From UHGV virus genome UHGV-0209088: a stretch of 64,000 bases of DNA; one strand, written 5' to 3'. Below, piece by piece: positions 8,899 through 61,047 of this stretch. The notes below the pieces were generated by a model. It searched no databases. It saw only the letters and a list, made by a program, of their open reading frames with translations, and was not told the origin of the DNA. Position 1 is the first letter of the stretch, and every line of letters begins with the position of its first letter. The position numbers were made by a program, and so were the translations under genes. This DNA comes from a virus.

Positions 8899-10188
8899 TC
8901 AGGCCGCTAACTTTACCGGCTCGCCGCTCCCGTTCAGAACGGCATCCAGCCACGCTGACCACTTATCCATGGCCGCTCGCTTCTCAGGCATATAATCCGC
9001 GCGGTCATAGTGCTTGCTGCCCGTGTCGTTCTGGGCGTGCTGCTGGATCAGGTCGCGGGTGAAGCGGTCGATACCGGCGTCCTTGGCCCGGGACTTCCAC
9101 GTCCGGCGCAGGTCGCGCGGCGTGAACGGTTCCATGCCCTCAATGACCGGATTGTAGCCATCCCCGCCGAAGGCCCGGCGAACGGCGTGGGAGACGCTGA
9201 CAGCCCCGAGGATTTCATCGGCGCTGTCCGAGCGGGCAGGGAAGAGGTATCCTTCGCCGTACTTGTCCTTCAGGCGCTTCAGGTCAGGGATGATGACATC
9301 GGGTAACGGAATATCGTGGGGGTACATCCGCCCTTTGGTCTTCTCTTTCGGCATCATCCAGAGCTTGGCGTCGAGGTCGATCTCGTGGCCTTCGATCCGC
9401 AGCGTCTCCTGCACGCGTTGTCCACAGGCAATCAGCATGCGCAATAGTATTTCAGTTCCTTCGCTGAAACCGAAGTTCCCATCCTGACAGCCGAACCAGA
9501 CCGTCTTGATCTCTTCGGCGCTCAGGTTCCGGTCGCGCAGGGTGCGGGCACCCGAATCCTTCGCCACGGCGGCGGCTGGATTCGTGGTCACGCCCCAGTC
9601 CTTACGCTCCTTGACCGTATAGTCATTGGCGGAGGTGATGGCCCATTCGAAGGTCGCCCGCAGGTAACTGCGCGCCTTGTCGGCTGCGCCGCGATTCCCG
9701 TCCTGGTAGTGCTTCGACACGAACTTGATGATGTCGTCAGGGGTGACCGTGGAGGGTGCCCGGTCGCGGCCAATGACATCGGCGGCGTTGTGTTTTGCCT
9801 TCAGGAGCACCCGCTCGACCTCGCTGGTCATGGCGATGTTCTTCGACTTCATGAAGGCGACCCGGGCCTCAAACATGGCCTCTAACGTAATTTCGTTTTT
9901 AACCTTCTCCTTGACCCGTTCACCCGCTGGATCGCCGCCCGCAGCGACCGCCAGAAAGACATCGCGGGCGAGGGAGCGCGCCTTATCCGGGGTGGTGTCC
10001 GAGACCCGGCAGAGGTTCATCTTCCGCTGCTTGCCGTCAGACTTGCGGCGGTACCGGACAACATATGTTTTCCGACCGCTCGACTGGATACGGACGCCGA
10101 ATCCCTGCAGCTCGCTGTCCCAGAGCCACGCATCGCCGGAGGCAGGTGCAACAAGGTTATCAATCGCAGTTTTTGTGATTTTCGGCAT
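8899..10188 (-). CDS. int: tyrosine integrase, P4-type, with an N-terminal DUF4102-like arm-binding domain
   Basis: N-terminus MPKITKTAIDNLVAPASGDAWLWDSELQGFGVRIQSSGRKTYVVRYR; catalytic-domain length and R...HxxR...Y layout. Start taken at the internal ATG with an AAGAGGG Shine-Dalgarno (+/-1 nt). Confidence 0.85.
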   Translation of the reverse strand: MPKITKTAIDNLVAPASGDAWLWDSELQGFGVRIQSSGRKTYVVRYRRKSDGKQRKMNLCRVSDTTPDKARSLARDVFLAVAAGGDPAGERVKEKVKNEITLEAMFEARVAFMKSKNIAMTSEVERVLLKAKHNAADVIGRDRAPSTVTPDDIIKFVSKHYQDGNRGAADKARSYLRATFEWAITSANDYTVKERKDWGVTTNPAAAVAKDSGARTLRDRNLSAEEIKTVWFGCQDGNFGFSEGTEILLRMLIACGQRVQETLRIEGHEIDLDAKLWMMPKEKTKGRMYPHDIPLPDVIIPDLKRLKDKYGEGYLFPARSDSADEILGAVSVSHAVRRAFGGDGYNPVIEGMEPFTPRDLRRTWKSRAKDAGIDRFTRDLIQQHAQNDTGSKHYDRADYMPEKRAAMDKWSAWLDAVLNGSGEPVKLAA

Positions 10189-10248
10189 AAAACCCTCTTT
10201 ACATTTTCGCTCTTCCGATCCTTCGACCGGGTGGATTTCCCCGCGATT

Positions 10249-10268
10249 TAGGGCGCAGCTAGGGCGCA
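10249..10268 (+). promoter_or_regulatory. TAGGGCGCA-gc-TAGGGCGCA direct repeat (11-bp register)
   Basis: Exact 9-mer repeated twice, 60 nt upstream of int. Confidence 0.5.
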
Positions 10269-10387
10269 AAATCCCGGGGTGTTGAGCGTTTTTAGAGGAA
10301 AGGCCGTGAATGGGTCAGAGTGTTAAACCATTGAAATCACGTCCAAAAAAGATTTCGCGTGACTTCCCGGTAAAGCGTGGTTTAAGA

Positions 10388-10431
10388 CTTCCAAGCTGAA
10401 TACGGGGGTTCGATTCCCCTCACCCGCTCCA
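10388..10431 (+). other. attP-like core: 44-nt 3' half of a tRNA-Gly(UCC) gene (anticodon loop to CCA) with no 5' half
   Basis: CTTCCAAGCTGAATACGGGGGTTCGATTCCCCTCACCCGCTCCA has the T-arm GGGGG/TTCGATT/CCCCT, acceptor 3' strand plus CCA, and the anticodon loop CUUCCAA (UCC). Very close to E. coli glyT. No complementary 5' acceptor strand (GCGGGTG) lies upstream. Confidence 0.6.
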
Positions 10432-10522
10432 CTTTTTCCTTCAAAAAACACCAACAATCACAGGCACTAACCTGGATCGGCCCGCCCGGTCAACCGCTAC
10501 GTTTGCGCCCTGAATTTTGAGT

Positions 10523-10542
10523 TAGGGCGCAGGTAGGGCGCA
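10523..10542 (+). promoter_or_regulatory. TAGGGCGCA-gg-TAGGGCGCA direct repeat
   Basis: Exact 9-mers; a single extra copy at 10568-10576 and an inverted partial copy at 10504-10512. Confidence 0.5.
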
Positions 10543-10645
10543 AGAAACGACGGGAAGTCCCGTGATTTAGGGCGCAGGCCCGAGAAGAGCCGCGCTTCCG
10601 GGTTCTTCGCGTTCCAGATAGCCTGTAAGGGGAAGTGTAACTCTG

Positions 10646-10663
10646 TTACTCAAATTTGAGCAA
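10646..10663 (-). promoter_or_regulatory. palindrome TTACTCA-AATT-TGAGCAA (family TTRCTCA-N4-TGAGYAA)
   Basis: 18-bp inverted repeat; the minus strand reads TTGCTC-N17-TTACAC, promoter-like, pointing toward att/int. Confidence 0.45.
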
Positions 10664-10711: not shown

Positions 10712-10743
10712 TGCGCCCTAAAGTGCGCCCTAACTGCGCCCTA
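10712..10743 (-). promoter_or_regulatory. three tandem TGCGCCCTA copies (minus-orientation TAGGGCGCA) at 11-bp spacing
   Basis: 10712-20, 10724-32, 10735-43; the last copy overlaps the TAG stop of the minus-strand gene ending at 10741. Confidence 0.5.
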
Positions 10744-11963: not shown

Positions 11964-13060
11964 CAGATGACCACCGTCACCCGCTCGGCGGCTCGCGTTA
12001 CCGCCGTATAGAGCCAGCGCTGCGCGTCCTCGCGGAACGTCCGGCTCTCATCGAACACCATTACATTGTTCCACTGGCTGCCCTGCGACTTATGCACGGT
12101 CAGGGCGTAGCCGTAGTCGAACTCCTGAAAGCCGCGGCGGTCGTTCCATTTCAGCTTGTCCTCAACGCCGAGGAAGAACTCTTCCCGCACGTCCACATCC
12201 ACCGGCTTCGTCACCATAGGATCGTCGTCGGTCATCACCGGCAGGCTGACGATCCCCTTTTCGTCGGGGAACGCGGCGCGGGTCGCCGTCCAGATGCCGC
12301 CATTCAGCAGCTGCTTCTCCTTGTCGTTCTTCAGGCAGACGAGGCGGTCACCTTCCACCGGGTAGGGCGTGTCAAATCCCTTCAGGCGCCGGATCTTGTC
12401 ATTGAACGTGCGACGCGTGCGGTTCAGGCCAATCAGTACCTGGTCGGCGGCCAGTACCGCCTTCTGCCCGACGCGGTCGCGGCTGATGACCTTGCTGTCG
12501 CCGTACATCCCGACCTGAAGCCGCTTACCCTCGCGGATCTCCATGCTCATCCGGATGATGGGGTTATCCGCTGCCTGACGGTGGATCTCGGTCAGCATCG
12601 CGTCCGGCTTCTGTGAGGTGAAGAACCCGGTACCGCTCACTGGCGGCAGCTGGGCCGGGTCGCCAAGAACCAGCACCTTGGTGCCGAAGGAGAGCAGGTC
12701 TGTTCCCAGCTCTTCGTCCACCATCGAGCATTCATCAATGATGATCAGGCCCGCCGTGGCTACGTTGCTGTCGGGGTTGAGCACGAAAGTCGGCTGCGGG
12801 CCGTCGTCCTCGACCTTGTAAATCATGCTGTGAATGGTCGACGCGCCTTGGCATCCCTTATTCCTGAGCACCAGGCTGGCCTTGCCGGTGAATGCGCCGA
12901 ACAGGACGCGCCCCTTAACCTCATCGCGGATGGCCTGAGCGATAGTGGTCTTGCCGGTACCGGCATAACCAAACAGGCGAAAAACCTGCGGGCCTGACTT
13001 GCTTCTATGCCAATCGTTGACAGCCTTAATTGCCGCTGACTGTTGCGGGCTCCAGCTCAT
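11963..13060 (-). CDS. RecD/Dda-like SF1 DNA helicase (AAA_30 / UvrD_C_2 type)
   Basis: Walker A GYAGTGKT, IIDECSM, GDPAQLPPV, YALTVHKSQGSQW, LYTAVTRA motifs in the canonical order. Confidence 0.7.
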   Translation of the reverse strand: MSWSPQQSAAIKAVNDWHRSKSGPQVFRLFGYAGTGKTTIAQAIRDEVKGRVLFGAFTGKASLVLRNKGCQGASTIHSMIYKVEDDGPQPTFVLNPDSNVATAGLIIIDECSMVDEELGTDLLSFGTKVLVLGDPAQLPPVSGTGFFTSQKPDAMLTEIHRQAADNPIIRMSMEIREGKRLQVGMYGDSKVISRDRVGQKAVLAADQVLIGLNRTRRTFNDKIRRLKGFDTPYPVEGDRLVCLKNDKEKQLLNGGIWTATRAAFPDEKGIVSLPVMTDDDPMVTKPVDVDVREEFFLGVEDKLKWNDRRGFQEFDYGYALTVHKSQGSQWNNVMVFDESRTFREDAQRWLYTAVTRAAERVTVVI

Positions 13061-13115
13061 AACCTTTCCTCAATCAGATAAAGAAATGGCGGGGTCTGGC
13101 CCCGCCTTTTTGCGT

Positions 13116-13394
13116 TTAGGCCACTGCGTCTTTCAGAGCCTTCGCCGCCTTGAACTTCACGGCGCGCTTCGCTTCGATCTGCACTTCTTCACCAGTCTTC
13201 GGGTTGCGACCGGTGCGGGCGGCGCGGAATGTCAGTTCCAGCTTGCCGACTCCGGGGATCAGCGCTTCGCCGTTTTCCAGAATGGATTCCGAGGTGATGT
13301 CCGCCAGGCGAGCGAGGACGTTTTCAGTCTGGGCGACACCCATGCCGGTTTTGGTAGAGAGGGTTTTGATCAGTTCTGCTTTAGTCATTTTCAA
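13116..13394 (-). CDS. HU/IHF-family DNA-binding protein
   Basis: 92 aa; MTKAELIKTLSTKTGMGVAQ...RAARTGRNPKTGEEVQIEAKRAVKFKAAKALKDAV is the HU signature. Confidence 0.8.
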   Translation of the reverse strand: MKMTKAELIKTLSTKTGMGVAQTENVLARLADITSESILENGEALIPGVGKLELTFRAARTGRNPKTGEEVQIEAKRAVKFKAAKALKDAVA

Positions 13395-13395
13395 A

Positions 13396-13638
13396 TTACC
13401 TTGCGGCGTTGCCGCGATATTGGCTTGTGCTGTTGACAGTGTTCAGGTTCTCCCACTCGATCAGTTTGTTGAGTGGGTACATGATACTGCCTCCGATCTT
13501 GGTAAAAGCCGGGCCATTACCCTGGCTTCTCCAGTTTGCCAGCGTCCTGGCGCTGATGTTGCCGTCGTAACGGGCCACTACATCAGCAGGCGTCAGGAAC
13601 TGCTTGGCGGGTTGCTGCTTCTTTGCTTCGACATCCAT
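13396..13638 (-). CDS. AlpA/Vis-family HTH protein (excisionase or regulator candidate)
   Basis: LTPADVVARYDGNISARTLANWRSQGNGPAFTKIGGSIMYPLNKLIEWE matches the Phage_AlpA pattern. Confidence 0.5.
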   Translation of the reverse strand: MDVEAKKQQPAKQFLTPADVVARYDGNISARTLANWRSQGNGPAFTKIGGSIMYPLNKLIEWENLNTVNSTSQYRGNAAR

Positions 13639-13654
13639 GTCGTTTTTCTATCCC

Positions 13655-14764
13655 TTAGAAGACATCATCAGGCTCGCCGGTTTGCGGTGCTGCGGCGTCA
13701 TCCGCTGTTTGCTCCGCGTCGGCTGATGGGGAATTTGCGGGATTTTCCGGGGTCGGCTCTTCCACGGTATTGCTGTTCTCTTCCACGGAATTGCTCTCTT
13801 CCTCGGCACCGGCCTCCGGCGTGGCTTCACGCGGGTCAGGCTGCGGTTCCGGCTTCGGCTTCGTCTGCCGGGCAGGGGTCGCCTTCTTCGCCTGCTGCTG
13901 GCGCTGCTGCGCGCCTTCATGAGACGCCAGTGTCAGTGCTTCGGCAGTGGCGACATTGGCCTCTGTCTCCACCTCACCGAAGTAATCAGCGATCTTTGCG
14001 CCATCCTTAATGGCGTTGAAAATGCCGGTCAGGTCGGCAATCTCGTCGGTGTTCACCGTGTCGAGTCCGTGACCGAGGAACCCTTCGAGGTGCTTGGTGG
14101 TCACGCCGAACTTGGCGAACACCTGCGTCATCTTGCGGACACGCTCGGCTACCGGGATCTCGCTATTGCCAGCCAACGTTTCGCGGCATGCAGCGATCGC
14201 AGCCTCAGATAACCACTTCGGCACCAGCGCCAGGATGCGGCCACGCACCTGCTTGGACGCAACGTTCGCGATCTTGTCGTCAATGTCCTTCTGGTCGCGC
14301 AGCTTGCGCGGGCCTTCTTTGGTGTCCAGAACGTGCATGACGGTGATCTGGCGCTTGGAGTAGTTGTTCTTCTCCATGTCCCACGCGTACACCTCGACCT
14401 CTGACTTTTTATCGTCGCGGGACAGCTCGCGGTGGCCGTACTGGAAGTTGCCGTAGACGCGGGCGATCTCTTCAGCCAGGCGAATGCTGGGGCCAGTCAC
14501 GGAGCTTTTGCCGCGTGGCAGCGTGTAGAACGCAACCGCCGCCAGCGCTGGCAGCCTGCAGGCTTCCATCAGCTCTGCAAAGGCAGCGTTCAGGTCGCGA
14601 GGGAAGCGCTTCGCCAGCATGAGCTGGCCTTGTGCTTCTGCGATGGCGCGCTGCTGCTCAATGGATACGGAACCAGCGTTGACCGGCGAGGGCATCGAAC
14701 CCTGCTGAAATTGATGGAAAGGGTGATCGCCGCCGTGAGTTTGTGAAACCAGTTCTTGAGACAT
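13655..14764 (-). CDS. putative single-strand annealing recombinase (RecT/ERF-like)
   Basis: 369 aa; sits between an SbcC-like ATPase and an HU gene, with a PD-(D/E)XK exonuclease upstream in the same operon; acidic, disordered C-terminus. Family assignment rests on context and size, not on a confirmed motif. Confidence 0.45.
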   Translation of the reverse strand: MSQELVSQTHGGDHPFHQFQQGSMPSPVNAGSVSIEQQRAIAEAQGQLMLAKRFPRDLNAAFAELMEACRLPALAAVAFYTLPRGKSSVTGPSIRLAEEIARVYGNFQYGHRELSRDDKKSEVEVYAWDMEKNNYSKRQITVMHVLDTKEGPRKLRDQKDIDDKIANVASKQVRGRILALVPKWLSEAAIAACRETLAGNSEIPVAERVRKMTQVFAKFGVTTKHLEGFLGHGLDTVNTDEIADLTGIFNAIKDGAKIADYFGEVETEANVATAEALTLASHEGAQQRQQQAKKATPARQTKPKPEPQPDPREATPEAGAEEESNSVEENSNTVEEPTPENPANSPSADAEQTADDAAAPQTGEPDDVF

Positions 14765-14829: not shown

Positions 14830-16161
14830 TTACTCTGCCGATTGCGATGTTTTTACTTGAAACTCATCGCCGGTTACTCGCGAAACGAACAATTGCAGGT
14901 TCGATTCCAGAGCTTGCTTGCGGAACTCTTCGAACGCGTTCGGATCCAGCAGCTCAATGCCGTCGACGCAGCACACGCCCAGAGCGCCGGCGCGCAGCTT
15001 CGCGATCTCGACAGCCACCCACACCTGCTGAGCAGTGTTGAGGCGGTCGAAATGAACGCCGTCGCGGTAAATCTCACCGTCCTTCACTTCCACGCCAGGG
15101 ATCGGCAGCGAGGCCAGCAGGTCGGCCTTGTACTGATCCAGATCGGCCAGCGCCTTCGTCTGGCGGGCTACGTCGGCATGAAGGTCGATCAGCTCCTTCT
15201 CCATCTGCTGGATGGTCTGCATGGCCTGCTCGCGCTTCGCGTGGGCGCTGCGGTTGGCCTTGATCGACTCCAGCGCGGTGTTGAGCGGCGCTACCGTGTC
15301 GGCGTGCTTCTGGATGGTTTTCTCGCGCTGCTGGCCTGCCAGGCCCTCAATGCGGCGCTCTTCGGTCTGGATGGCTTCAACGTCCGCGACGGCCTTCGCT
15401 TTGATTGCATCAATCTGGCGCTGCGCTTCGGCGCGGATTTCGTCAATCTTCTGCTGATTGGTTTTCTTGATGCCCGTCAACTTGGCGGCGATGCGATCCA
15501 GTTCGGCAGTCTTCTCTTCCTCAGCAGAGCGCACCTTCGCCTGCAGCTCGTCCTCGCTGCCTTCCACACCGCCTGGCGCTTCCGGCATTGCCAGCTTGAG
15601 CTGATTGATCGCGTTATCTTTCTCCTTCACGGCGCGGTTGGTGCCGGTGCGGTCGTCGTACACTTCTTTGTAAACGACTTCGATCACGGACAGCGCGTGA
15701 GTGCCGGGCTCGGCGGTGACCGGGATTCCAGTCATCCCCGCCAGCTTATCGAGGTCAGCTTCCAGCGGCATCGTCTCCAGCAGCACCTTCACGCGGTCCT
15801 GTTTACGGGCGCGCAGGAAGTCTATCGGGTTGATTGACAGCGCATCGGTGAGCTTTTTGATGGCCTCAGCCGGGCGCGAGGTCAGTTTCCCGTCGACGCG
15901 GACTTTGCTGGTGGACTTGTCGGCGGTGACTGTCTTCGACAGCTCGGTACCGTCGTCCAGCACCAGAACGGCTTCGCCCTTTTCAGCGCCTTTGCGCAGC
16001 AGGGTGGCATCGTGCCCGGTGGACAGTGCCGACTTGATCGCTTCCAGCACGCTGGTCTTGCCAGTGCCGTTCGGACCGGAAATTTCGTTGAATCCTTCCG
16101 GCGTAAACTCCAGTTCGGCAATGCCGAGAATATTGCTGATTTTGATCTGCGCGATACGCAT
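14830..16161 (-). CDS. SbcC/RecF/SMC-like AAA ATPase
   Basis: N-terminus MRIAQIKISNILGIAELEFTPEGFNEISGPNGTGKTSVLEAI (Walker A); long coiled-coil middle; D-loop/Walker B region near the C-terminus (LGVCCVDGIELLD). Confidence 0.55.
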   Translation of the reverse strand: MRIAQIKISNILGIAELEFTPEGFNEISGPNGTGKTSVLEAIKSALSTGHDATLLRKGAEKGEAVLVLDDGTELSKTVTADKSTSKVRVDGKLTSRPAEAIKKLTDALSINPIDFLRARKQDRVKVLLETMPLEADLDKLAGMTGIPVTAEPGTHALSVIEVVYKEVYDDRTGTNRAVKEKDNAINQLKLAMPEAPGGVEGSEDELQAKVRSAEEEKTAELDRIAAKLTGIKKTNQQKIDEIRAEAQRQIDAIKAKAVADVEAIQTEERRIEGLAGQQREKTIQKHADTVAPLNTALESIKANRSAHAKREQAMQTIQQMEKELIDLHADVARQTKALADLDQYKADLLASLPIPGVEVKDGEIYRDGVHFDRLNTAQQVWVAVEIAKLRAGALGVCCVDGIELLDPNAFEEFRKQALESNLQLFVSRVTGDEFQVKTSQSAE

Positions 16162-16187
16162 ACATGTTCCTTAGTTGATAGTTTTTG

Positions 16188-16547
16188 TCACTCAGCCGCG
16201 TCGCGGCCAATAAACTGGTTCAGCATGGCCTGTGCCTGCGGTGCCTTGCCCGCGGCTTCGCGCCAGTCTGGATCTTCCACGTCCTGAAGCAGGCAGAGGT
16301 CTTCCCAGAAGTTCACGATCTCTGCCCACTCCCGGGACAAGTGGCCGACGCGCGGCAGGCAGGAACGCAGCTCCGGCGCGGTCTCAAACATCAGGCGGCA
16401 GCGGCGCAGATCTTCCATCGTGCGCGGCAGGTCTTCGCCGTGGTCGCTCAGCGCGTTCTCACCCGTGCAGTAGGTGAAGATGGTCTCGGCGGCAGCGCAG
16501 CGCTCGCCGGTGCTGAGCCACAGCTCAGCGTTCGGTGAAAGGCTCAT
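16188..16547 (-). CDS. hypothetical protein (119 aa)
   Basis: ORF overlaps the exonuclease gene start by 4 nt. Confidence 0.3.
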   Translation of the reverse strand: MSLSPNAELWLSTGERCAAAETIFTYCTGENALSDHGEDLPRTMEDLRRCRLMFETAPELRSCLPRVGHLSREWAEIVNFWEDLCLLQDVEDPDWREAAGKAPQAQAMLNQFIGRDAAE

Positions 16548-25581: not shown

Positions 25582-25599
25582 TTACTCAAATATGAGCAA
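25582..25599 (-). promoter_or_regulatory. palindrome TTACTCA-AATA-TGAGCAA
   Basis: On the minus strand this reads TTGCTC-N17-TTATAT, a sigma70-like promoter, immediately after the terminator. Confidence 0.45.
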
Positions 25600-30375: not shown

Positions 30376-30393
30376 TTACTCAAAAATGAGCAA
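30376..30393 (-). promoter_or_regulatory. palindrome TTACTCA-AAAA-TGAGCAA
   Basis: The minus strand reads TTGCTC-N17-TAGTAT, a sigma70-like promoter upstream of two small membrane ORFs. Confidence 0.45.
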
Positions 30394-30399
30394 GCGTTT

Positions 30400-30882
30400 T
30401 TAAACATTATTTCTTGATTTCCCGCTTACCCAGACAACAACACGCTGATACGGTACCTCCATCTTCTCAGCGATATCTTTACGCGATACCCCGGCTTCAA
30501 AGAGCTGGCGGCAAAGGCTGACATCTTCGTCGCTGTACTTCTTCCTCAGCAGAGGCAGGCCGATTGCCCAGCATTTCTTTTTGATCGACGCCTCGGTTCG
30601 GTTGAGGGCCACCGCCATTTCCGCAGGGGTCATCGTCTGGTGGTTGGCCTCGAGGAAGGCCATCTCTTCGAATGACCACTCAACCCAGTTCTGCTGTCTT
30701 ACCGGCTTGATCCCGGCCCGTTGCATCCTGGTGCGGACGGAAGAGAATGAACGGCCCATCATGGCGGCTACCTGGCGCGCCGGATACAGACGCGCGAGCT
30801 CGCGCAGCCTATCCATGTCCTCGGTAGTCCAGCGCGTTCTGTCGAAGTTGGTTCTCACCTTTCTCGGTGTTTTGGTGCCCAT
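30400..30882 (-). CDS. DNA-binding protein with repeated HTH-like modules
   Basis: Repeated TEDMDRLRELARLYPARQVAAMMGRS / FEEMAFLEANHQTMTPAEMAVALNRT modules. Confidence 0.4.
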   Translation of the reverse strand: MGTKTPRKVRTNFDRTRWTTEDMDRLRELARLYPARQVAAMMGRSFSSVRTRMQRAGIKPVRQQNWVEWSFEEMAFLEANHQTMTPAEMAVALNRTEASIKKKCWAIGLPLLRKKYSDEDVSLCRQLFEAGVSRKDIAEKMEVPYQRVVVWVSGKSRNNV

Positions 30883-34484: not shown

Positions 34485-34502
34485 TTACTCAAATATGAGC
34501 AA
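34485..34502 (-). promoter_or_regulatory. palindrome TTACTCA-AATA-TGAGCAA
   Basis: The minus strand reads TTGCTC-N17-TATAGT, promoter-like, after the terminator. Confidence 0.45.
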
Positions 34503-37483: not shown

Positions 37484-37503
37484 TAGGGCGCACATAGGGC
37501 GCA
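37484..37503 (+). promoter_or_regulatory. TAGGGCGCA-ca-TAGGGCGCA direct repeat
   Basis: Exact 9-mers. Confidence 0.5.
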
Positions 37504-37537: not shown

Positions 37538-37555
37538 TTACTCAAAAATGAGTGA
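37538..37555 (+). promoter_or_regulatory. palindrome TTACTCA-AAAA-TGAGTGA
   Basis: Preceded by TTGACA at 37523; upstream of the gene at 37568. Confidence 0.4.
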
Positions 37556-41324: not shown

Positions 41325-41344
41325 TAGGGCGCACATAGGGCGCT
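41325..41344 (+). promoter_or_regulatory. TAGGGCGCA-ca-TAGGGCGCt direct repeat
   Basis: Ends about 20 nt before the start codon at 41364, so it lies in the 5' UTR or overlaps the promoter. Confidence 0.5.
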
Positions 41345-41363: not shown

Positions 41364-41708
41364 ATGAAGATGGACAATCAGCACCGCAAGATCGTCGGCT
41401 ATCGCGAGCTGACACAGGCCGAAATCGACCTGATGAACGAAATCAAAGCGAAAGGGAAGGAGCTGTTAGCGCTCCATGACAAAGTGGTGGAGTTGATTGG
41501 CGAACAGGATTTGGTGCCAGCAATCATGGCTGCTGCAGACCATAACTCTAAGGGTATGTCTTACATGATCCCACCTAAGCAGGACGCTGATGTCATGGCG
41601 CGACACGCAATCGCAGAACCACGCCGCTGGGCGTCCATCGGCAAGACCGATCTCCAGAAGGGCATCATGGCGCTGGTGCGCGCCGTAGCCCAGCCGACTG
41701 ACTGCTAA
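41364..41708 (+). CDS. hypothetical protein (114 aa)
   Basis: GAGGA Shine-Dalgarno. Confidence 0.35.
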   Translation: MKMDNQHRKIVGYRELTQAEIDLMNEIKAKGKELLALHDKVVELIGEQDLVPAIMAAADHNSKGMSYMIPPKQDADVMARHAIAEPRRWASIGKTDLQKGIMALVRAVAQPTDC

Positions 41709-44397: not shown

Positions 44398-44401
44398 GTA
44401 G

Positions 44402-44440
44402 AAACGGCAATGCAAATCAATGCGTTGCCGTTTTCGTTTG
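44402..44440 (+). terminator. rho-independent terminator
   Basis: AACGGCAA...TTGCCGTT hairpin followed by TTTCGTTTG. Confidence 0.5.
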
Positions 44441-44444
44441 TGGT

Positions 44445-44464
44445 TAGGGCGCATATAGGGCGCA
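44445..44464 (+). promoter_or_regulatory. TAGGGCGCA-ta-TAGGGCGCA direct repeat
   Basis: Exact 9-mers. Confidence 0.5.
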
Positions 44465-44478
44465 CCGCAAAGTATTTC

Positions 44479-44496
44479 TTGCTCATATTTGAGTAA
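44479..44496 (+). promoter_or_regulatory. palindrome TTGCTCA-TATT-TGAGTAA
   Basis: TTGCTC-N17-TTACAC promoter-like; heads a ~105-nt leader shared with the 48105 locus. Confidence 0.45.
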
Positions 44497-44601
44497 CTGC
44501 GTTACACTTCACTTGAGGTAACGGCTATTCCCGCGTTACCGGACCCAGTTCTACTGGCGTGACAAAAACAATCAACCGCGAACCAACGCGGTAGGGATTT
44601 T

Positions 44602-46383
44602 ATGAATATTACATATGGCTCTGTGTGCAGCGGCATCGAAGCTGCATCCATTGCATGGGAGCCGCTGGGGCTGAAGCCAGCGTGGTTTTCCGAGATTGAG
44701 GCTTTTCCGTCTGCTGTTCTGAAGCACCACTGGCCGCACGTCAGCAACCTCGGAGATATGACCAAAATCGCCGCCGCTGTGCGTGCTGGCACCGTTCCTG
44801 CTCCAGACATAGGCGTGGGTGGCACACCTTGTCAGGCATTTTCAGTCGCTGGCGCTCGCGCTGGCCTTTCAGACCCTCGCGGTCAACTCACCATTTCATA
44901 CGTGGAATTAGCCGATGCAATTGACGACACCCGAACCGCAGCCGGAAAACAGCCAGCCATCTTCGTCTGGGAGAACGTGCCCGGAGTCCTCAGCTCCAAA
45001 GACAACGCTTTCGGAGCCTTCCTTGGACTGCTTGCCGGGGAAGACTGTGAGCTACAACCGCCAGGGGGAAAATGGAAGAACGCTGGTTGTGTGCTTGGAC
45101 CCAAAAGAACAATCGCGTGGCGGGTCGTTGATGCCCAATATTTCGGAGTGGCCCAACGACGCCGCCGTGTGTTTGTTGTCGCAAGTGCTCGAACCGATTT
45201 CGATCCCCGAAAAGTATTTTTTGAGTCCGAAGGCGTGCGCCGGGATACTGCGCCGAGCCGAAGCGCGGGGTCGGCAGTTGCCGCCCTTACTGCGAATGGC
45301 GTTGGAACATGTGGTGCGGACGACAACCAAGGACAAGCAGGACACCTGATCGCTGCGTTCGGCGGTGGGAACTGCTCAGGCGCGCTGGATGTAGCGGCCT
45401 GCCTGACAGCGCGCGGCCAGCGCATTGACTTCGAAGTCGAGACCTTTCTCGCCCAGTACAGCAGCACCGGGCAGGGCGCATGGGCTGAGGGCTTTGGCAC
45501 GCTGCGCGCCAGAGAGCAGGAGAGCCACGAGCATCTGGCGGTGATGGCCGTTCACGGCACGCAGGATCCTGACACGCTCAACGAGCTGGCGCACACGCTG
45601 GGGCGCAATCAGGGGCAGGAGAACGCCGTCATCGCGTTCAACAGCAAAGACCACGGGCAGGATGCCGCGGAGGAAATATCCCCGACGCTGCGCTCCGCTG
45701 GTCACGGTACCAGCCACGCGAACGCTGGCGCGCCGCCTGCTGTGGCCTATGGCTTCCAGCCGCGTATTGCCCGCAACGGTCGCGGCGATATGGGCGATGT
45801 TTGCCACGCTCTTACTGCGGAGGCCGGGGAGACCGGGAAGGGGGATTCTGCGCCGCATGTGGCCGTTGCCTTCGCTGAGAACAGCCGCGGCGAAATCCGC
45901 CTTCAGGATGGCGACGGCGGCATCACCGGCCCGCTGTCTACCGGGGGCGGAAAGCCAGGGCAGGGTTATCCGGCAGTGGTCGCCTTTCAGGAACGCGGTC
46001 GCGCTGATGGTCGCACGCTGGAGATTAACGGCGATCTGGCCTACGCGCTGACAGCGCCAAACGGCGGTGGCCGGGCGCAGGAGCGGAACATTGTCGATTT
46101 CCGCACAATGGCCGTGCGTCGCCTGACGCCGCGCGAGTGCGAGCGCCTGCAGGGCTTCCCCGATGACCACACGCTCATCCCATACGGGAAGGCTATCAGG
46201 CCGGAGAAGCTGGAAGCGGACTACGCAAAATATCTGATGCGCGGCGGTCGCATGACCTTTGACGAGTGCTGCCGCGCTGCCGCTGATGGCCCGCGTTACA
46301 AGGCAATCGGCAATTCAATGGCGGTGCCGTGCATGGCTTGGATCGGTCGCCGCATCCTGCAACAGCTCGAGGGGGCTATGTGA
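44602..46383 (+). CDS. DNA cytosine-C5 methyltransferase (Dcm-like) with a long C-terminal extension
   Basis: Motif I region [13 protein letters not shown] motif [15 protein letters not shown] motif FVWENVPG. Confidence 0.8.
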
Positions 46384-47063
46384 AAGATATCTACCAGAAG
46401 ATAAACGGCGATGAGTACCGCGGCGTGTGGGTCGTAGGTGACCTGCACGGCTGCTACACCAACCTGATGAACCGGCTGGACGCAGTCGGTTTCGACCCGG
46501 CGCAGGATCTGCTGGTTTCGGTTGGCGACCTGATTGACCGCGGGGCGGAGAACGTCGAGTGCCTGGACCTGATTAATCAGCCGTGGTTCCGGGCAGTGCG
46601 CGGAAACCATGAGCAGATGATGCTGGACGCGCTGCTCAATGGGGGCAGCTTCGGTCACTGGATGTCGAACGGTGGTGGCTGGTGGCACAGCATGGATTAT
46701 GAGCAGGATATGCGGCTGAAATCCCTGCTCCCCAAGGTAGCTGGTCTGCCGCTGATCATCGAGCTGGAGAAGGGTGGGAAGAAGTTCGTCATCTGCCATG
46801 CTGACTACCCGAAAGAAGAGTACGAATTCGGAAAGCCGGTAGTCGAGCAGGATGTCATCTGGAACCGCGAGCGTGTCAGCACGTCAATGGATCTGGTGGA
46901 TAAGGTGCCGGTGAATGACCTGCTCATTCCTGGCGCTGATCTGTTCATCTTCGGGCATACGCCAGCGCGACAGCCAATGCGTTTCAGCAACCAGCTCTAC
47001 ATCGACACCGGTGCCGTGTTCACCGGCAATCTGACACTGGTCAATCTTGGGGAAGTTCTGTGA
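46380..47063 (+). CDS. Ser/Thr protein phosphatase (lambda-PPase-type metallophosphoesterase)
   Basis: GDLHG...GDLIDRG...RGNHE motifs; GTG start overlaps the Dcm stop (ATGTGA). Confidence 0.75.
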
Positions 47064-47248
47064 AGACGCTGCTGAAGGTGGTTCTGTGGGTGGCGGGGAT
47101 AGCCGCCTTTATCTGGCTGCTTGGGGTTGCCGGTGAACATGATCGCCAAGACTGCGAGGTGCGTATCGCGCAGGAGCTTGGCACAACCGCTCGCTACATC
47201 GACGGCCATTGCATGGTGAAAGGGTACGGGAGGGTGGATGGCCGGTAA
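47060..47248 (+). CDS. small membrane protein (62 aa)
   Basis: One TM helix. Confidence 0.3.
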
Positions 47249-47606
47249 ACGCCTCAACATCATCCTTGAGCCACGGAAGGCCGGGATCTGCCTCAAGGCG
47301 CAGGTGCGCGCAACGCTGGTGGCGCTGGATGGCCGCTGGTTCATCGGTACCAACGGAGTGAGATCACCGCAGGAGGTCTGCCCGCGCGCTGGCTCTCCCC
47401 ACTTCACCGGGTATGAGGCGTGCAAGGGTATCTGCCGTCAGGAGTCGCATGCAGAAGTGAGCGCCATCAATCTGGCGGGAGAAGCCGCCCGCGGCGCCAC
47501 GATCTACCTCGAGGGGCACTTCGCCGCGTGTCCGGATTGCCAGGCGGCAGCCGACGCAGCTGGCATCGCGCAAATCATCATCGGCGCACCGCCAGTGCAA
47601 CAGTAG
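47238..47606 (+). CDS. dCMP/cytidine-deaminase-family zinc-dependent deaminase
   Basis: HAEVSAI zinc-binding motif and ACPDC...AAGIAQII, matching the dCMP-deaminase HAE...PCxxC...AGI pattern. Confidence 0.6.
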   Translation: MAGKRLNIILEPRKAGICLKAQVRATLVALDGRWFIGTNGVRSPQEVCPRAGSPHFTGYEACKGICRQESHAEVSAINLAGEAARGATIYLEGHFAACPDCQAAADAAGIAQIIIGAPPVQQ

Positions 47607-47670
47607 ATCATTTTGGTTGGATCCCGCCTCAATAGACGCTATTGGTGCCTTCCGTAACAGGAGGGCACCT

Positions 47671-48030
47671 ATGAGCCGCGCACTTACCCCTGAAGAACTA
47701 CGCAATAACGTCCTGAACCACGTCCGCCTGATGGTCGAATACTGGGCCACCCTGCCGGGCCTTGATGAGCACGCGCGCTGCGATGGCGTGGCGTTCTCGA
47801 TCCTCACCATGATTGACGGCAGCGCAGACCAGCCGCCGATGGCGCTGGTGGCGCTCTCCAGCGATGAGGACAAGCAGTATTACGTCGAGAAGGGCGAGAA
47901 CTGGGTCGAGCACGGCACCGTCATCAACGATGATGTGATGCTGCACGAGGAATATAACGCGCCTGAGCGCGCCGAATATGCCAAGTCCGTCATGAAATCA
48001 GCTGTGAAAGCTGACGACCAGAAGAACTAA
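47671..48030 (+). CDS. hypothetical protein (119 aa)
   Basis: Start set at the Met with an AGGAGGG Shine-Dalgarno. Confidence 0.35.
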   Translation: MSRALTPEELRNNVLNHVRLMVEYWATLPGLDEHARCDGVAFSILTMIDGSADQPPMALVALSSDEDKQYYVEKGENWVEHGTVINDDVMLHEEYNAPERAEYAKSVMKSAVKADDQKN

Positions 48031-48070
48031 CCTCTATAAATTCAATCACCTGCGCTGCGCCCTGACATTC

Positions 48071-48090
48071 TAGGGCGCAGGTAGGGCGCA
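48071..48090 (+). promoter_or_regulatory. TAGGGCGCA-gg-TAGGGCGCA direct repeat
   Basis: Exact 9-mers. Confidence 0.5.
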
Positions 48091-48104
48091 ATGTTCAATA
48101 TTAC

Positions 48105-48122
48105 TTGCTCAAATATGAGTAA
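48105..48122 (+). promoter_or_regulatory. palindrome TTGCTCA-AATA-TGAGTAA
   Basis: TTGCTC-N17-TTACAT promoter-like; heads a leader homologous to 44479-44601. Confidence 0.45.
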
Positions 48123-48225
48123 TTGAGTTACATTATCGGCTATCCCGTTTATTCACGGGAAACATGGCCCAGCGCTGCTGGCGTGACGACAATCAATAAG
48201 CCGCGAAAAACGCGGCGAGGAATTT

Positions 48226-49476
48226 ATGAATCGATATGAACTACACCTCGGCAACTGCCTTGAGGTGTTGAAGGACTTACCAGACAACTCCGTAGACAGT
48301 ATCGTCACCGACCCGCCATACGGCCTTAGCTTCATGAACAAGAAGTGGGATTATGATGTGCCGAGCGTCGAGGTATGGTCCGAATGCCTGCGAGTTCTGA
48401 AACCTGGCGGTCATTTGCTGTCGTTCGCTGGTACCAGAACTCAGCACAGAATGGCCTGCAACATAGAGGACGCTGGCTTCGAGATCCGCGACATGGTGTC
48501 ATTCCTCTACGACACTAATGAAACCGCTCAGGCACTGATTGAAAGCCTGACACCGGAACAGTTGAAAATGCTGGACGCCACCTTCGGTCGAGACTCTATG
48601 CTTGCATGGGTGTACGGCAGCGGTTTCCCTAAATCTCACAACCTCAAAGATGACTGGACAGGCTGGGGCACCGCCCTGAAACCAGCGCTGGAGCCAATCA
48701 CCGTAGCCCGTAAGCCGTTCAGAGGAACCGTTGCGGCAAACGTGCTGAAGCATGGCACCGGTGCTCTGAATATTGATGTGTGCCGTATCTCAACGGCAGA
48801 TAAGCTCGGTGGTGGCGCGGAAAAGGCGAAGAATGCTGGTCTAATCCATGAAGGGTGGCAGCGTCCGTGGATGAGCGACCCGCAAGCCGCTGAAGCGTAT
48901 GCGAAACGGATAAGAGAAAATGTCGAGAAGAGCGAAGCGCTAGGCCGCTGGCCTGCCAACTTGATTCACGACGGCAGCGATGAGGTTCTTGACCTTTTCC
49001 CTGAGACCAAATCAGGGGTCATGAAAGCAGGAACCCGGCGCGCTGCTCAGGATGAGCCTGGGAGCGTTTGTTACGGTACATACGGCGGCAATGCCGCGAG
49101 CACCGATACCTATGGGGATTCCGGTAGTGCTGCCCGTTTCTTCTACTGCGCGAAAGCTACTCGCAAAGACCGTAACGAGGGAATGCAGGATCCAGGCCCG
49201 CAGTTCGAACACGGCGCGACGCTGCGCAAGGTGGAGAATACCGAAACCAAAGGCAACAACCATCCGACAGTGAAGCCGACAGACCTGATGGCCTATCTAT
49301 GCAGGCTGGTCACGCCTCCTGGCGGAGTGGTGCTCGACCCTTTCATGGGAAGCGGAAGCACTGGAAAGGCGGCAATGCGAGAAGGGTTCCGATTTATCGG
49401 CATTGAGATGGACGCGGACTACCTTGCGATCGCTGAGGCGCGCATTGCGCATGAGGCCGGGAAGGGGGCAGCATGA
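48226..49476 (+). CDS. beta-class amino (N6-A or N4-C) DNA methyltransferase
   Basis: N-terminal motif IV DPPYGL; C-terminal motif I FMGSGSTGKAA. Confidence 0.75.
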   Translation: MNRYELHLGNCLEVLKDLPDNSVDSIVTDPPYGLSFMNKKWDYDVPSVEVWSECLRVLKPGGHLLSFAGTRTQHRMACNIEDAGFEIRDMVSFLYDTNETAQALIESLTPEQLKMLDATFGRDSMLAWVYGSGFPKSHNLKDDWTGWGTALKPALEPITVARKPFRGTVAANVLKHGTGALNIDVCRISTADKLGGGAEKAKNAGLIHEGWQRPWMSDPQAAEAYAKRIRENVEKSEALGRWPANLIHDGSDEVLDLFPETKSGVMKAGTRRAAQDEPGSVCYGTYGGNAASTDTYGDSGSAARFFYCAKATRKDRNEGMQDPGPQFEHGATLRKVENTETKGNNHPTVKPTDLMAYLCRLVTPPGGVVLDPFMGSGSTGKAAMREGFRFIGIEMDADYLAIAEARIAHEAGKGAA

Positions 49477-49958
49477 TGCCCGAGCAACCAAAACGCATCT
49501 CGTATAACGAGAGAGGTGCAACTGCGCCTTACGACCCGCGAGAGGTTTTTCCGCCCGAACTGACTGAATCCAGCAGAAAGATGACTCGCATTCTGGCGCG
49601 CGGCGGGCTGCAAAAACACATCCGCCAGTTCGGCGCTGATGGGCGCTTTACCTTCCACGCCGGGCTGACGGTCGAAGAGGCGGCAGCGCCAGGGATAGTC
49701 GAGGCTGTGAAGCGGTCGACGCTGCATGAGTTCGCCTCCGGTGACCTGGTGGTCATCCGCGGCACCACCGAAGCCGTTGAGATCGAGAAGGTCTGCGGCG
49801 TGTTCCTGATCCTGCGCTCATACGGCGATGGCGGCTGCAACGCGTTCCGCCGCGTGAACCCGCCGCACGGTCGATACAGCTACGGGCGCATTCACATCTA
49901 CAAAGGGCATGTTGAGCCAAACGGGAGGGTCTATGGACCTGGAAAAACACAGAAATAA
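49473..49958 (+). CDS. hypothetical protein (161 aa)
   Basis: ATGA overlap. Confidence 0.35.
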   Translation: MMPEQPKRISYNERGATAPYDPREVFPPELTESSRKMTRILARGGLQKHIRQFGADGRFTFHAGLTVEEAAAPGIVEAVKRSTLHEFASGDLVVIRGTTEAVEIEKVCGVFLILRSYGDGGCNAFRRVNPPHGRYSYGRIHIYKGHVEPNGRVYGPGKTQK

Positions 49959-51987: not shown

Positions 51988-52007
51988 CAGGGCGCAGATA
52001 GGGCGCA
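51988..52007 (+). promoter_or_regulatory. cAGGGCGCA-ga-TAGGGCGCA direct repeat
   Basis: One mismatch in the first copy. Confidence 0.45.
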
Positions 52008-57425: not shown

Positions 57426-57443
57426 TTAATCATTTTTGAGTAA
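57426..57443 (+). promoter_or_regulatory. degenerate palindrome TTAATCA-TTTT-TGAGTAA
   Basis: Same family as TTRCTCA-N4-TGAGYAA, abutting the terminator. Confidence 0.35.
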
Positions 57444-60615: not shown

Positions 60616-60635
60616 TAGGGCGCTCATAGGGCGCA
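60616..60635 (+). promoter_or_regulatory. TAGGGCGCt-ca-TAGGGCGCA direct repeat
   Basis: Abuts the Shine-Dalgarno of the gene at 60646. Confidence 0.5.
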
Positions 60636-60645
60636 GGAGAAAGGA

Positions 60646-61047
60646 ATGAGCAATTTTAGAGGTGAAAAATTAAACCCCCTGGAAGTGATAAAGCAACAGA
60701 TTGGTATTACTTGCGACCATATCACTTATGACCCGACACTGAGAAAATCAAAATCCCAGTACCAGAGAATCCGCCAGTGCTCACATGACGGAACGATGAT
60801 CTTCACATGCGAATTGCTGGCAGATACCCTGCTGGACCTCATAAATATGCGGTCGTATGCCAAGAACTTCCCACCAGAAGAAGGAAAAACGGTTGTGGGA
60901 ATCAAGTACACGGTAGGTTCTCTTTGGCTTAGCACTGTTTGGGGAACGGTAGAATTACCAGCGGGAACATACCCCGGGCAATGCCAGCGCACCAGAATGT
61001 CTGTTGTCTGCGAATACATTTACGCAGAAGCACCGCAGCCGGAATAA
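60646..61047 (+). CDS. hypothetical protein (133 aa), AT-rich moron
   Basis: GC content clearly below that of its neighbours; Cys-containing. Confidence 0.35.
   Translation: MSNFRGEKLNPLEVIKQQIGITCDHITYDPTLRKSKSQYQRIRQCSHDGTMIFTCELLADTLLDLINMRSYAKNFPPEEGKTVVGIKYTVGSLWLSTVWGTVELPAGTYPGQCQRTRMSVVCEYIYAEAPQPE

Follow-up and report, generated by a model that had tools for sequence, protein, structure and literature searches.

Orphan methyltransferases of phages serve to escape restriction, and methylation in excess or at the wrong time can be harmful to the host, for instance by way of methylation-dependent nucleases; to our knowledge, the control of these genes is largely uncharted outside the mom gene of phage Mu. 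In the com-mom system of Mu, the translation start is masked by a leader hairpin until a small zinc-finger protein, the product of a gene immediately upstream, opens the hairpin. A single helix-turn-helix protein, Aca2, binds both the promoter DNA and the mRNA leader of anti-CRISPR operons. The 5′ untranslated region (5′ UTR) of ompA functions ahead of foreign coding regions, and this type of stabiliser was reportedly described in E. coli by Emory, Bouvet and Belasco in 1992. Here we analysed a stretch of 64,000 nucleotides (nt) from the virus genome UHGV-0209088, referred to as the window, and describe a structured 5′ leader that stands before two of its methyltransferase genes, one of the C5 (dcm-type) and the other of the beta-class N6/N4 type. 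Folded as single sequences, the leaders form three hairpins (H1, H2 and H3), with an unpaired tract between H2 and H3.

Several features of this leader recall the systems mentioned above. The ompA 5′ UTR is likewise a portable 5′ leader composed of a 5′-terminal hairpin, an unpaired segment and a second hairpin beside the Shine-Dalgarno sequence, and in the phage leader H3 does lie beside the Shine-Dalgarno sequence with an unpaired segment upstream; however, there is no sequence kinship between them, and the phage leader is repeated within one phage and limited to methyltransferase genes. As in Mu com-mom, a phage DNA-modification gene carries a leader hairpin, but the translational control is that of Mu, whereas H3 spares the Shine-Dalgarno sequence and the ATG, and a Com-like gene was not found. 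The control of anti-CRISPR operons by Aca2 (for context, see PMC13551039) shares with the locus described here the presence of counter-defence genes, a strong operator-bearing promoter, a structured leader near the ribosome-binding site and a cargo that is exchanged behind a constant control region; in contrast, the RNA hairpin of Aca2 repeats its DNA operator, while neither the palindrome nor the TAGGGCGCA boxes found upstream of the phage leader are related to its hairpins. The earlier note on this DNA compared the leader with the C-protein or antisense control of restriction-modification genes. This is only an analogy: in both cases a DNA methyltransferase appears to be under dedicated control, but the phage enzymes are orphans without a nuclease partner, and neither an antisense promoter nor an antisense partner was found in the window. 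The leader is not a member of the ompA 5′ UTR, Mu com-mom, Aca-type or lambda nut systems. Although structured cis-acting mRNA leaders are known as such, it looks like a new dedicated control element. A catalogue based on IMG/VR reports four uncharacterised candidate RNA structures upstream of phage N6-adenine methyltransferase genes, which are computational predictions on viral contigs located within 25 nt of the methyltransferase start codons (Fremin et al. 2023, PMC10690425). The leader is probably not among them, since pattern scans of IMG/VR yielded no copy of it.

The two leaders and the genes that follow them comprise these elements:

44517–44540, plus strand: H1, the 5′-proximal hairpin of the dcm-type leader (GGTAACG, 10-nt loop, CGTTACC), from the minimum-free-energy fold
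44545–44557, plus strand: H2 of the dcm-type leader (CCAGT, loop TCT, ACTGG), from the fold and covariation
44558–44574, plus strand: conserved single-stranded CGTGAC of the dcm-type leader, then an A/C-rich linker; invariant columns G-G-N-G-T-N-A, predicted to be unpaired
44575–44592, plus strand: H3 of the dcm-type leader (ACCGCG, loop AACCAA, CGCGGT), abutting the Shine-Dalgarno sequence, from the fold and covariation
44593–44604, plus strand: Shine-Dalgarno sequence AGGGA and ATG of cargo gene 1
44602–46383, plus strand: cargo gene 1, C5 cytosine methyltransferase of 593 amino acids (aa) (PF00145, E = 2.3e-35)
48138–48169, plus strand: H1 of the beta-type leader, from the minimum-free-energy fold
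48169–48181, plus strand: H2 of the beta-type leader (CCAGC, loop GCT, GCTGG), from the fold and covariation
48182–48199, plus strand: CGTGAC of the beta-type leader, then the A/C-rich linker GACAATCAATAA; the same invariant columns, predicted to be unpaired
48200–48216, plus strand: H3 of the beta-type leader (GCCGCG, loop AAAAA, CGCGGC), from the fold and covariation
48217–48228, plus strand: Shine-Dalgarno sequence GAGGAA and ATG of cargo gene 2
48226–49476, plus strand: cargo gene 2, beta-class N6/N4 methyltransferase of 416 aa (PF01555, E = 1.7e-31)
49473–49958, plus strand: open reading frame (ORF) of 161 aa coupled to cargo gene 2; in four relatives it stands directly behind the leader

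The sequences that the earlier note had quoted as homologous leaders are present where it placed them, and a global alignment of 44509–44601 with 48135–48225, a stretch bounded by the −10 hexamer and the ATG, showed 64 identical columns out of 96. The score of this alignment was 27, far above that of 1000 shuffled controls (−6.3 ± 4.1, maximum 9.5); the likeness runs through the whole leader and not only through the promoter motifs, and in the core that extends from H2 to the ATG, 49 of 66 positions are identical. The cargo proteins, as the note also held, are unrelated: they belong to different families (PF00145 and PF01555), and the best blastp match between them had an E value of 0.46. Both leaders close, before the Shine-Dalgarno sequence and the ATG, with the CCGCG-N-CGCGG hairpin already noticed in the note, in which N is 5 or 6 nt; this hairpin (H3) was recovered in both by single-sequence folding, with 0–1 nt separating it from the Shine-Dalgarno sequence and ~10 nt from the ATG. 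The H1 of the beta-type leader is formed by an inner stem (TCCCG, 8-nt loop, CGGGA, 48143–48160) and a tentative outer helix (GGCTAT/ATGGCC). A covariance model of the leader core (R1) matched only at the two methyltransferase sites within the 64-kilobase (kb) window.

Relatives were reached by several routes. A megablast search aligned the beta-type leader to phage ST4 just upstream of a C5 methyltransferase, with 78–82% nucleotide identity and the flanks unaligned; an exact-pattern scan with the promoter motifs gave two metagenomic phage contigs of ~91–94 kb, 80–86% identical to the window, and one short contig; and homologues of the ParB-methyltransferase pointed to twelve more contigs. With R1, 26 copies scoring 49–90 bits were detected in 14 contigs, and only two copies in the window. 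All of them are built on the same core: H2, a GGNGUNA motif, a single-stranded A/C-rich tract of 10–14 nt, and H3 ending 0–3 nt before the Shine-Dalgarno sequence, with H3 at a fixed distance from the Shine-Dalgarno sequence and the ATG in all 26 copies.

The RNA folding and covariation check called for by the earlier note bears out a structured leader, in which H2 and H3 are conserved through compensatory changes. In a structure-specified MAFFT alignment of the 19 distinct cores, 92.8% of the cells were paired, as compared with 83.9% in shuffles, and 7 of the 11 pairs had changes on both sides; these values were reached by none of 500 shuffles. When the partner was slid by 1–3 columns, pairing fell to 27–52%. 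As the sequences are related, the shuffle control overstates their independence, and the slide control together with the variety of the stems are the stronger arguments. H3 was 99% paired, four of its six pairs covary, and its stem occurs as CCGCG/CGCGG, CCACG/CGTGG, CCGAG/CTCGG and GCTGTG/CACAGC, while H2 is kept as a hairpin of 4–6 base pairs (bp) across seven different stem sequences; given that the loop of H2 varies in length, column-wise counts understate its conservation. Invariant unpaired positions were the G-G-N-G-U-N-A that follows H2, several A's of the linker and the 3′ AA of the H3 loop. H1 is less supported, with a conserved stem and a variable loop: the foot pair of the dcm-type H1 is G-C in the window, U-A in the relative L039 and G.U in L048, and the beta-type H1 has among the relatives an invariant inner stem, a variable loop and a partly kept outer helix.

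The leader is associated with methyltransferases: these follow 22 of the 26 copies and fall into three unrelated families. Twelve copies stand before a C5 methyltransferase (PF00145, with at least three N-terminal types), eight before an N6/N4 methyltransferase (PF01555, two types) and two before a third family (phrog_757, E = 1.9e-75). The other four copies, in L047, L057, L040 and L058, lack a methyltransferase behind the leader and precede the ~160-aa ORF that in the window lies downstream of the methyltransferase. An exchange was seen in L039, where the identical dcm-type core heads the phrog_757 enzyme in place of the 593-aa C5 enzyme: the homology between the window and L039 is broken at the ATG and resumed at the next gene. 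The two dcm-type cores are identical at 65 of 65 positions, the flanking genes being 82–86% identical, and the beta-type cores at 60 of 65, with all five changes in loops or unpaired positions. The Dam, ParB-methyltransferase and DUF4942 methyltransferase genes of these phages are without the leader.

The core can be separated from the promoter that precedes it in the window, which is composed of a TAGGGCGCA box pair and a palindrome. Within gene arrays, at L050 10412, L051 10795 and L053 11426, the core stands with neither box pair nor palindrome, and H1 is missing from the copies that lack this module. In L058, promoter and core are pushed apart by an inserted gene (12565–13990) that encodes a YadA-anchor domain and brings a leader hairpin and a terminator of its own; in each hairpin of the core thus displaced, one pair is non-standard. 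That some copies are without the promoter module indicates that the core is a separate unit. Taken with the three or more unrelated families behind it and with the exchange at the ATG in L039, this upholds the view of the earlier note that the leader is portable and reused for methyltransferases.

R1 found no copy in the more distant relatives L003–L007, L055 and L056, and the leader-derived patterns gave none in IMG/VR, where exact patterns returned nothing or chance matches and 80 loose-pattern loci all failed the covariance-model screen; from both results, the leader appears confined to one clade, to which a scaffold of a Microvirga assembly, described next, also belongs. Searches of the E. 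coli genome gave no leader match, and those of plasmids only matches to the coding sequences. An exact-pattern scan of genome contigs returned two loci, one of which holds a real copy: a 59.5-kb scaffold of Microvirga sp. 2YAF29 (L035) carries a full unit of promoter, leader and N6/N4 methyltransferase. The occurrence of a unit from a phage clade of enterobacteria and aeromonads in an alphaproteobacterial assembly could reflect a real prophage or a contaminating contig.

Related elements were also observed. A divergent leader is present at L002 1517–1620 (ST4_001) and L049 7282–7450, ahead of a third N6/N4 methyltransferase; it keeps the box pair but not the palindrome, continues with CGTGAC, an A-rich spacer and a GC hairpin of another sequence (ACGGGGC/GCCCCGT) up to the ATG, and was undetected by the covariance model. 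In the related phage L051, the place of the first methyltransferase slot of the window is occupied by a tandem pair of Y RNA-like (YrlA) modules (9146–9384; E = 3.6e-7 and 5.9e-6, below the Rfam gathering score); they are placed under the same palindromic promoter and shortly ahead of a Ro60/TROVE gene. A TROVE gene is also found at L054 12089–13408.

The reading that we favour, with a confidence that stops a little short of even, is that of a sense-strand, cis-acting structured mRNA leader which, in a clade of ~90-kb temperate phages, stays constant at the head of slots whose methyltransferase can be exchanged. Transcription would start at the palindrome-bearing promoter, 1–3 nt before H1, and the transcript would then fold H2, leave GGNGUNA and the 10–14-nt A/C-rich tract unpaired, and form H3 0–3 nt before the Shine-Dalgarno sequence. 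The core, comprising H2, the tract and H3, would act post-transcriptionally at the translation start, as a shared operator through which a trans-acting factor would govern when, or in what amount, the methyltransferase in the slot is made; in addition, H1 and H3 may shield the message from decay as 5′ hairpins. An operator for a shared factor is preferred because the core is tied to methyltransferase slots, is located within the ribosome footprint, and by itself neither opens nor closes the start site. A stabilising or processing role of the ompA kind is nearly as likely as the operator role, and both may coexist. From sequence alone we infer the transcription start, the formation of the structure in RNA as opposed to DNA, any binding factor and the direction of any effect on expression.

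A number of observations weigh against this reading. The transcription start is a prediction, and the two strands could not be distinguished by folding energy. Both the Shine-Dalgarno sequence and the ATG lie outside the stem of H3, so that the ribosome-binding site is not sequestered, and the mean unpaired probability of the start region was 0.45 with the native leader versus 0.46 with a shuffled one; with such equal accessibility, the structure alone predicts no effect on translation. Apart from the 3′ AA of the H3 loop, the hairpin loops have little conserved sequence and thus offer few features for specific recognition. The window search and the scans of neighbouring ORFs provided no candidate binding protein or antisense RNA for the leader. 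The copies come from one narrow clade and are not independent, and the leader subtype partly follows the cargo family, so that shared descent, rather than function, could explain part of the association with methyltransferases.

The reading of the earlier note is upheld in part: the leader is structured and portable, but its control of translation or action as a riboregulator is a proposal, and neither occlusion of the ribosome-binding site nor an antisense partner within the window was found. The search for a small antisense RNA that the earlier note had proposed was run within the window, 64 kb of a ~90-kb phage, and returned nothing above shuffled controls, the longest trans-complementary runs being 11–14 nt as compared with up to 16–18 in shuffles; a scan revealed no promoter-like site on either strand. 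In Rfam, nothing in the window matched at gathering scores, and the two leaders gave only noise of 9–14 bits at E values up to 10. Our literature search on the motifs and the phage group returned nothing relevant.

Some simpler roles were considered and set aside. An insulator that holds the ribosome-binding site open was ruled out by the equal accessibility of native and shuffled leaders. An upstream ORF or leader peptide was also ruled out, since a conserved start codon or frame is absent among the copies: the ATG of AACATGGCC is replaced by ATA in L040 and L048 and is absent from the dcm-type leaders, and an ORF starting from GUGAC would extend over 3 to more than 18 codons, with frames that shift between copies. 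That the UGA of CGUGAC serves as the stop codon of the upstream gene is true only for a partial copy at 16191 (described below) and fails at the cores of L050, L051 and L053. Likenesses by eye to a k-turn, a parS half-site, the RfaH ops element, a CsrA GGA pair, Hfq ARN repeats and a MetJ box were dropped because of their poor fit.

Of the competing explanations, the strongest is that the leader is nothing more than an mRNA stabiliser or processing module of the ompA 5′ UTR type, without a dedicated regulator, although we regard it as unlikely. H1 would guard the primary 5′ end, RNase E would cut the A/C-rich tract, and H3 would guard the processed message; the order of a 5′-proximal hairpin, an unpaired tract and a hairpin beside the Shine-Dalgarno sequence agrees with this, as do the start predicted 1–3 nt before H1, the loss of H1 where the box pair and palindrome module is missing, and a structure that leaves the ribosome-binding site untouched, but it explains neither the restriction to methyltransferase slots nor the conserved GGNGUNA motif. 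Next in plausibility, and again unlikely, is a passive junction homogenised by recombination, which would be a boundary for methyltransferase swaps whose hairpins have no regulatory role beyond that of an ordinary ribosome-binding site. Several results point in this direction: behind an identical core, the cargo of the window and that of L039 differ precisely from the ATG onward, four relatives have no methyltransferase behind the leader, and the core is more conserved than its flanks, as expected from gene conversion. Besides, the A/C-rich linker alone is used as the ribosome-binding-site spacer of other genes. A partial copy of it, GTGACAAAAACTATCAAC, lies at 16174–16191 on the minus strand, with 17 of 18 nt matching the linker of the dcm-type leader (0.01 expected); it covers the stop codon of one gene together with the spacer to the Shine-Dalgarno sequence of an AAA-ATPase gene (14830–16161), and is absent from the orthologous region of the relative L037, while a similar CAAAAACAATCAA spacer is found ahead of another gene at L054 3034. 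However, recombination anchors need identity and not structure, whereas the stems vary and yet stay paired (seven variants of H2 and four of H3) and substitutions avoid them; a passive junction thus explains the exact breakpoints but not the compensatory changes. Doubtful, and to our mind less plausible than these two, is an extended form of the operator idea, according to which the core would be the RNA operator of a phage-wide anti-restriction regulon, with one dedicated RNA-binding factor recognising H2, GGNGUNA, the tract and H3 beside the ribosome-binding site. Every methyltransferase in a slot, of any family, would then receive the same timing or dose control, in a manner similar to that of Aca proteins but on RNA. 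The gene directly behind slot 2 encodes a candidate for such a factor, a conserved protein of ~160 aa with a C-terminal half modelled, tentatively, as an SH3/KOW/Tudor-like barrel; the model of the 161-aa ORF had a mean predicted local distance difference test (pLDDT) score of 74.6 and gave weak matches to KOW, Tudor and PWWP barrels (E values of 0.02 or worse).

The remaining alternatives assign the conserved hairpin to transcription or to metabolite sensing. It is improbable that H3 and the complement of the linker, which is T-rich, form a minus-strand intrinsic terminator, or the 3′ end of a cis-antisense RNA lying over the ribosome-binding site, at which antisense or convergent transcription would be stopped. 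A lenient consensus scan does flag 48216–48200 and 44592–44575 on the minus strand, where the folds are as stable as on the plus strand, and some relatives have minus-strand toxin-antitoxin genes downstream of slot 2. But the U-tracts are interrupted (UUAUUGAUUG, UGAUUGUUUUUG) and much weaker than those of clear phage terminators such as the one at 44401–44439, and in four of the 19 H3 stems, plus-strand G.U pairs would correspond to A.C mismatches on the minus strand, the reverse case being found in no stem. Moreover, no minus-strand genes are present at 36–52 kb of the window, the antisense promoter would have to sit in the non-conserved cargo genes, where the scan found none, and neither H2 nor the fixed spacing between H3 and the Shine-Dalgarno sequence would be explained. 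Still less probable is a nut-like site for processive antitermination, in which a phage factor would be loaded onto RNA polymerase after two operator-controlled promoters. The leader does resemble lambda nutL and nutR in being duplicated behind two similar, operator-controlled promoters and in its layout, where boxA, spacer and boxB have their likeness in a single-stranded box, a spacer and a short GC hairpin whose loop is A-rich, and H3 is a GC stem of 5–7 bp with loops such as AAAAA or GCAAA. Nevertheless, boxA (YGCUCUUWA) is absent from 44400–44620 and 48050–48230, and its count in the window is that expected (35 versus 33.6); the H3 loops of the window (AAAAA and AACCAA) begin with A and not with the G of a GNRA-like boxB, those of the ST4 group being GCAAA, GCUAA and GCCAA. 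The hairpin is fixed beside the ribosome-binding site and locked to the Shine-Dalgarno sequence in 26 of 26 copies, which points to translation. Furthermore, there are promoterless copies in tandem gene arrays, two cores can share a single array (L050 and L053), and six other palindromic promoters are without the leader. Family scans of the neighbouring ORFs turned up no N-like arginine-rich protein. Least probable of all is a riboswitch that senses S-adenosylmethionine (SAM) or S-adenosylhomocysteine (SAH), to which only the dependence of all these cargo methyltransferases of unrelated folds on SAM would lead: no Rfam family matched even at E = 10, conservation resides in the stems and in one unpaired tract instead of in loops or junctions, with H2 loops of down to 3 nt, neither a pseudoknot nor an alternative pairing of the Shine-Dalgarno sequence was seen, and four copies precede an ORF that is not a methyltransferase.

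The earlier note also placed a TAGGGCGCA pair and a palindromic promoter (TTGCTCAnnnnTGAGTAA) ahead of both leaders. Both are indeed present, but they are not specific to these genes, as they recur throughout the window:

44401–44439, plus strand: intrinsic terminator closing the upstream ParB-methyltransferase operon (14-bp stem, then TTTTCGTTT)
44445–44464, plus strand: TAGGGCGCA direct-repeat pair with 11-bp phasing, centred ~60 bp upstream of the predicted transcription start
44479–44508, plus strand: promoter of the dcm-type leader, with the palindrome TTGCTCATATTTGAGTAA and TTGCTC (−35-like) in its left arm
48056–48090, plus strand: one inverted box, then a TAGGGCGCA pair, upstream of the beta-type leader
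48105–48134, plus strand: promoter of the beta-type leader, with the palindrome TTGCTCAAATATGAGTAA and the −10 hexamer TACATT (48129–48134)
10646–10663, 25582–25599, 30376–30393 and 34485–34502, each on the minus strand: palindrome TTGCTCAnnnnTGAG(T/C)AA with a TAnnnT hexamer
37538–37555, 44479–44496, 48105–48122 and 57426–57443: further palindromes TTGCTCAnnnnTGAG(T/C)AA with a TAnnnT hexamer
10249–10268, 10523–10576, 10712–10743 (minus strand), 37484–37503 and 41325–41344: TAGGGCGCA repeats in 11-bp phase
44445–44464, 48071–48090, 51988–52007 and 60616–60635: further TAGGGCGCA repeats in 11-bp phase

The −10 hexamer of the dcm-type leader is TACACT at 44503–44508, and the transcription start there is predicted from the promoter geometry. 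About eight palindromes are present in the window (17 strand-wise matches, with 0.25 expected), together with about nine TAGGGCGCA box pairs (36 matches with at most one mismatch, versus 17.7 expected). The palindrome sites share a common module, in which a terminator and a box pair precede the palindrome, whose left arm holds the −35-like TTGCTC, and a TAnnnT −10 hexamer comes last; at the other sites this module is followed by different leaders. The sites are probably a dispersed set of operator-promoters. An ORF at 30400–30882 on the minus strand, with two helix-turn-helix motifs and a weak GcrA-like match, adjoins one of the palindromes. The TAGGGCGCA repeats form clusters that flank the attP region on both sides and pairs upstream of accessory genes, at times only 11–47 nt before the start codon, as for the Acb2/Tad1-like gene at 41364, the 1355-aa ORF at 52054 and the ORF at 60646. 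This distribution suggests that the boxes are bound by a putative Cox/Apl/excisionase-type regulator with a further role at attP. GCGC, a common target of C5 methylation, is contained in the box.

The window belongs to a temperate tailed phage or prophage, with tail-fibre genes, helicases and a 933-aa primase; the size of the phage is ~90 kb, of which ~30 kb falls outside the 64 kb analysed. Its closest phage in GenBank is Aeromonas phage ST4 (90.6 kb), whose primase has 71% amino acid identity, followed by other ~90-kb myovirus-type phages; near-identity searches of phage, plasmid and E. coli collections did not find a close relative. Beside the integrase there is a 3′ fragment of a tRNA gene:

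8899–10269, minus strand: tyrosine integrase, beside the 3′ fragment of a tRNA-Gly-like gene
~10386–10432: ~45 nt of the 3′ part of a tRNA-Gly(UCC)-like gene, adjoining the integrase

The fragment holds the anticodon loop, the T arm and the CCA-proximal acceptor, and no complete tRNA was called; its position beside the integrase is the expected signature of a phage attachment site inside a tRNA gene. Between about 36 and 52 kb all genes are directed rightward, many of them with accessory or counter-defence roles, and this arm encodes a Dam-like methyltransferase, an Acb2/Tad1-like protein, a ParB-methyltransferase homologue (in which Pfam detected only the N6/N4 methylase domain), the C5 methyltransferase, a phosphatase, a deaminase-like protein, the beta-class N6/N4 methyltransferase and an AraC-family regulator. 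The Acb2/Tad1-like gene of the window lies at 41364–41708, and Acb2/Tad1-like and Sequestin-like genes are also found in L049, L050, L054 and L056; the products of both are sponges for immune signalling nucleotides, encoded in the same rightward arm as the methyltransferases. The sponge genes alongside the methyltransferases mark this arm as a counter-defence region.

A fixed leader with a swapped enzyme suggests that, in these phages, control is built into the slot and not into the gene. If the leader is regulatory, it would provide a compact model, of ~70 nt, for the post-transcriptional control of counter-defence genes, and would help to locate methyltransferase slots in related phages; if it is not, it would represent a clean and well-sampled case of modular exchange at a structured gene boundary.

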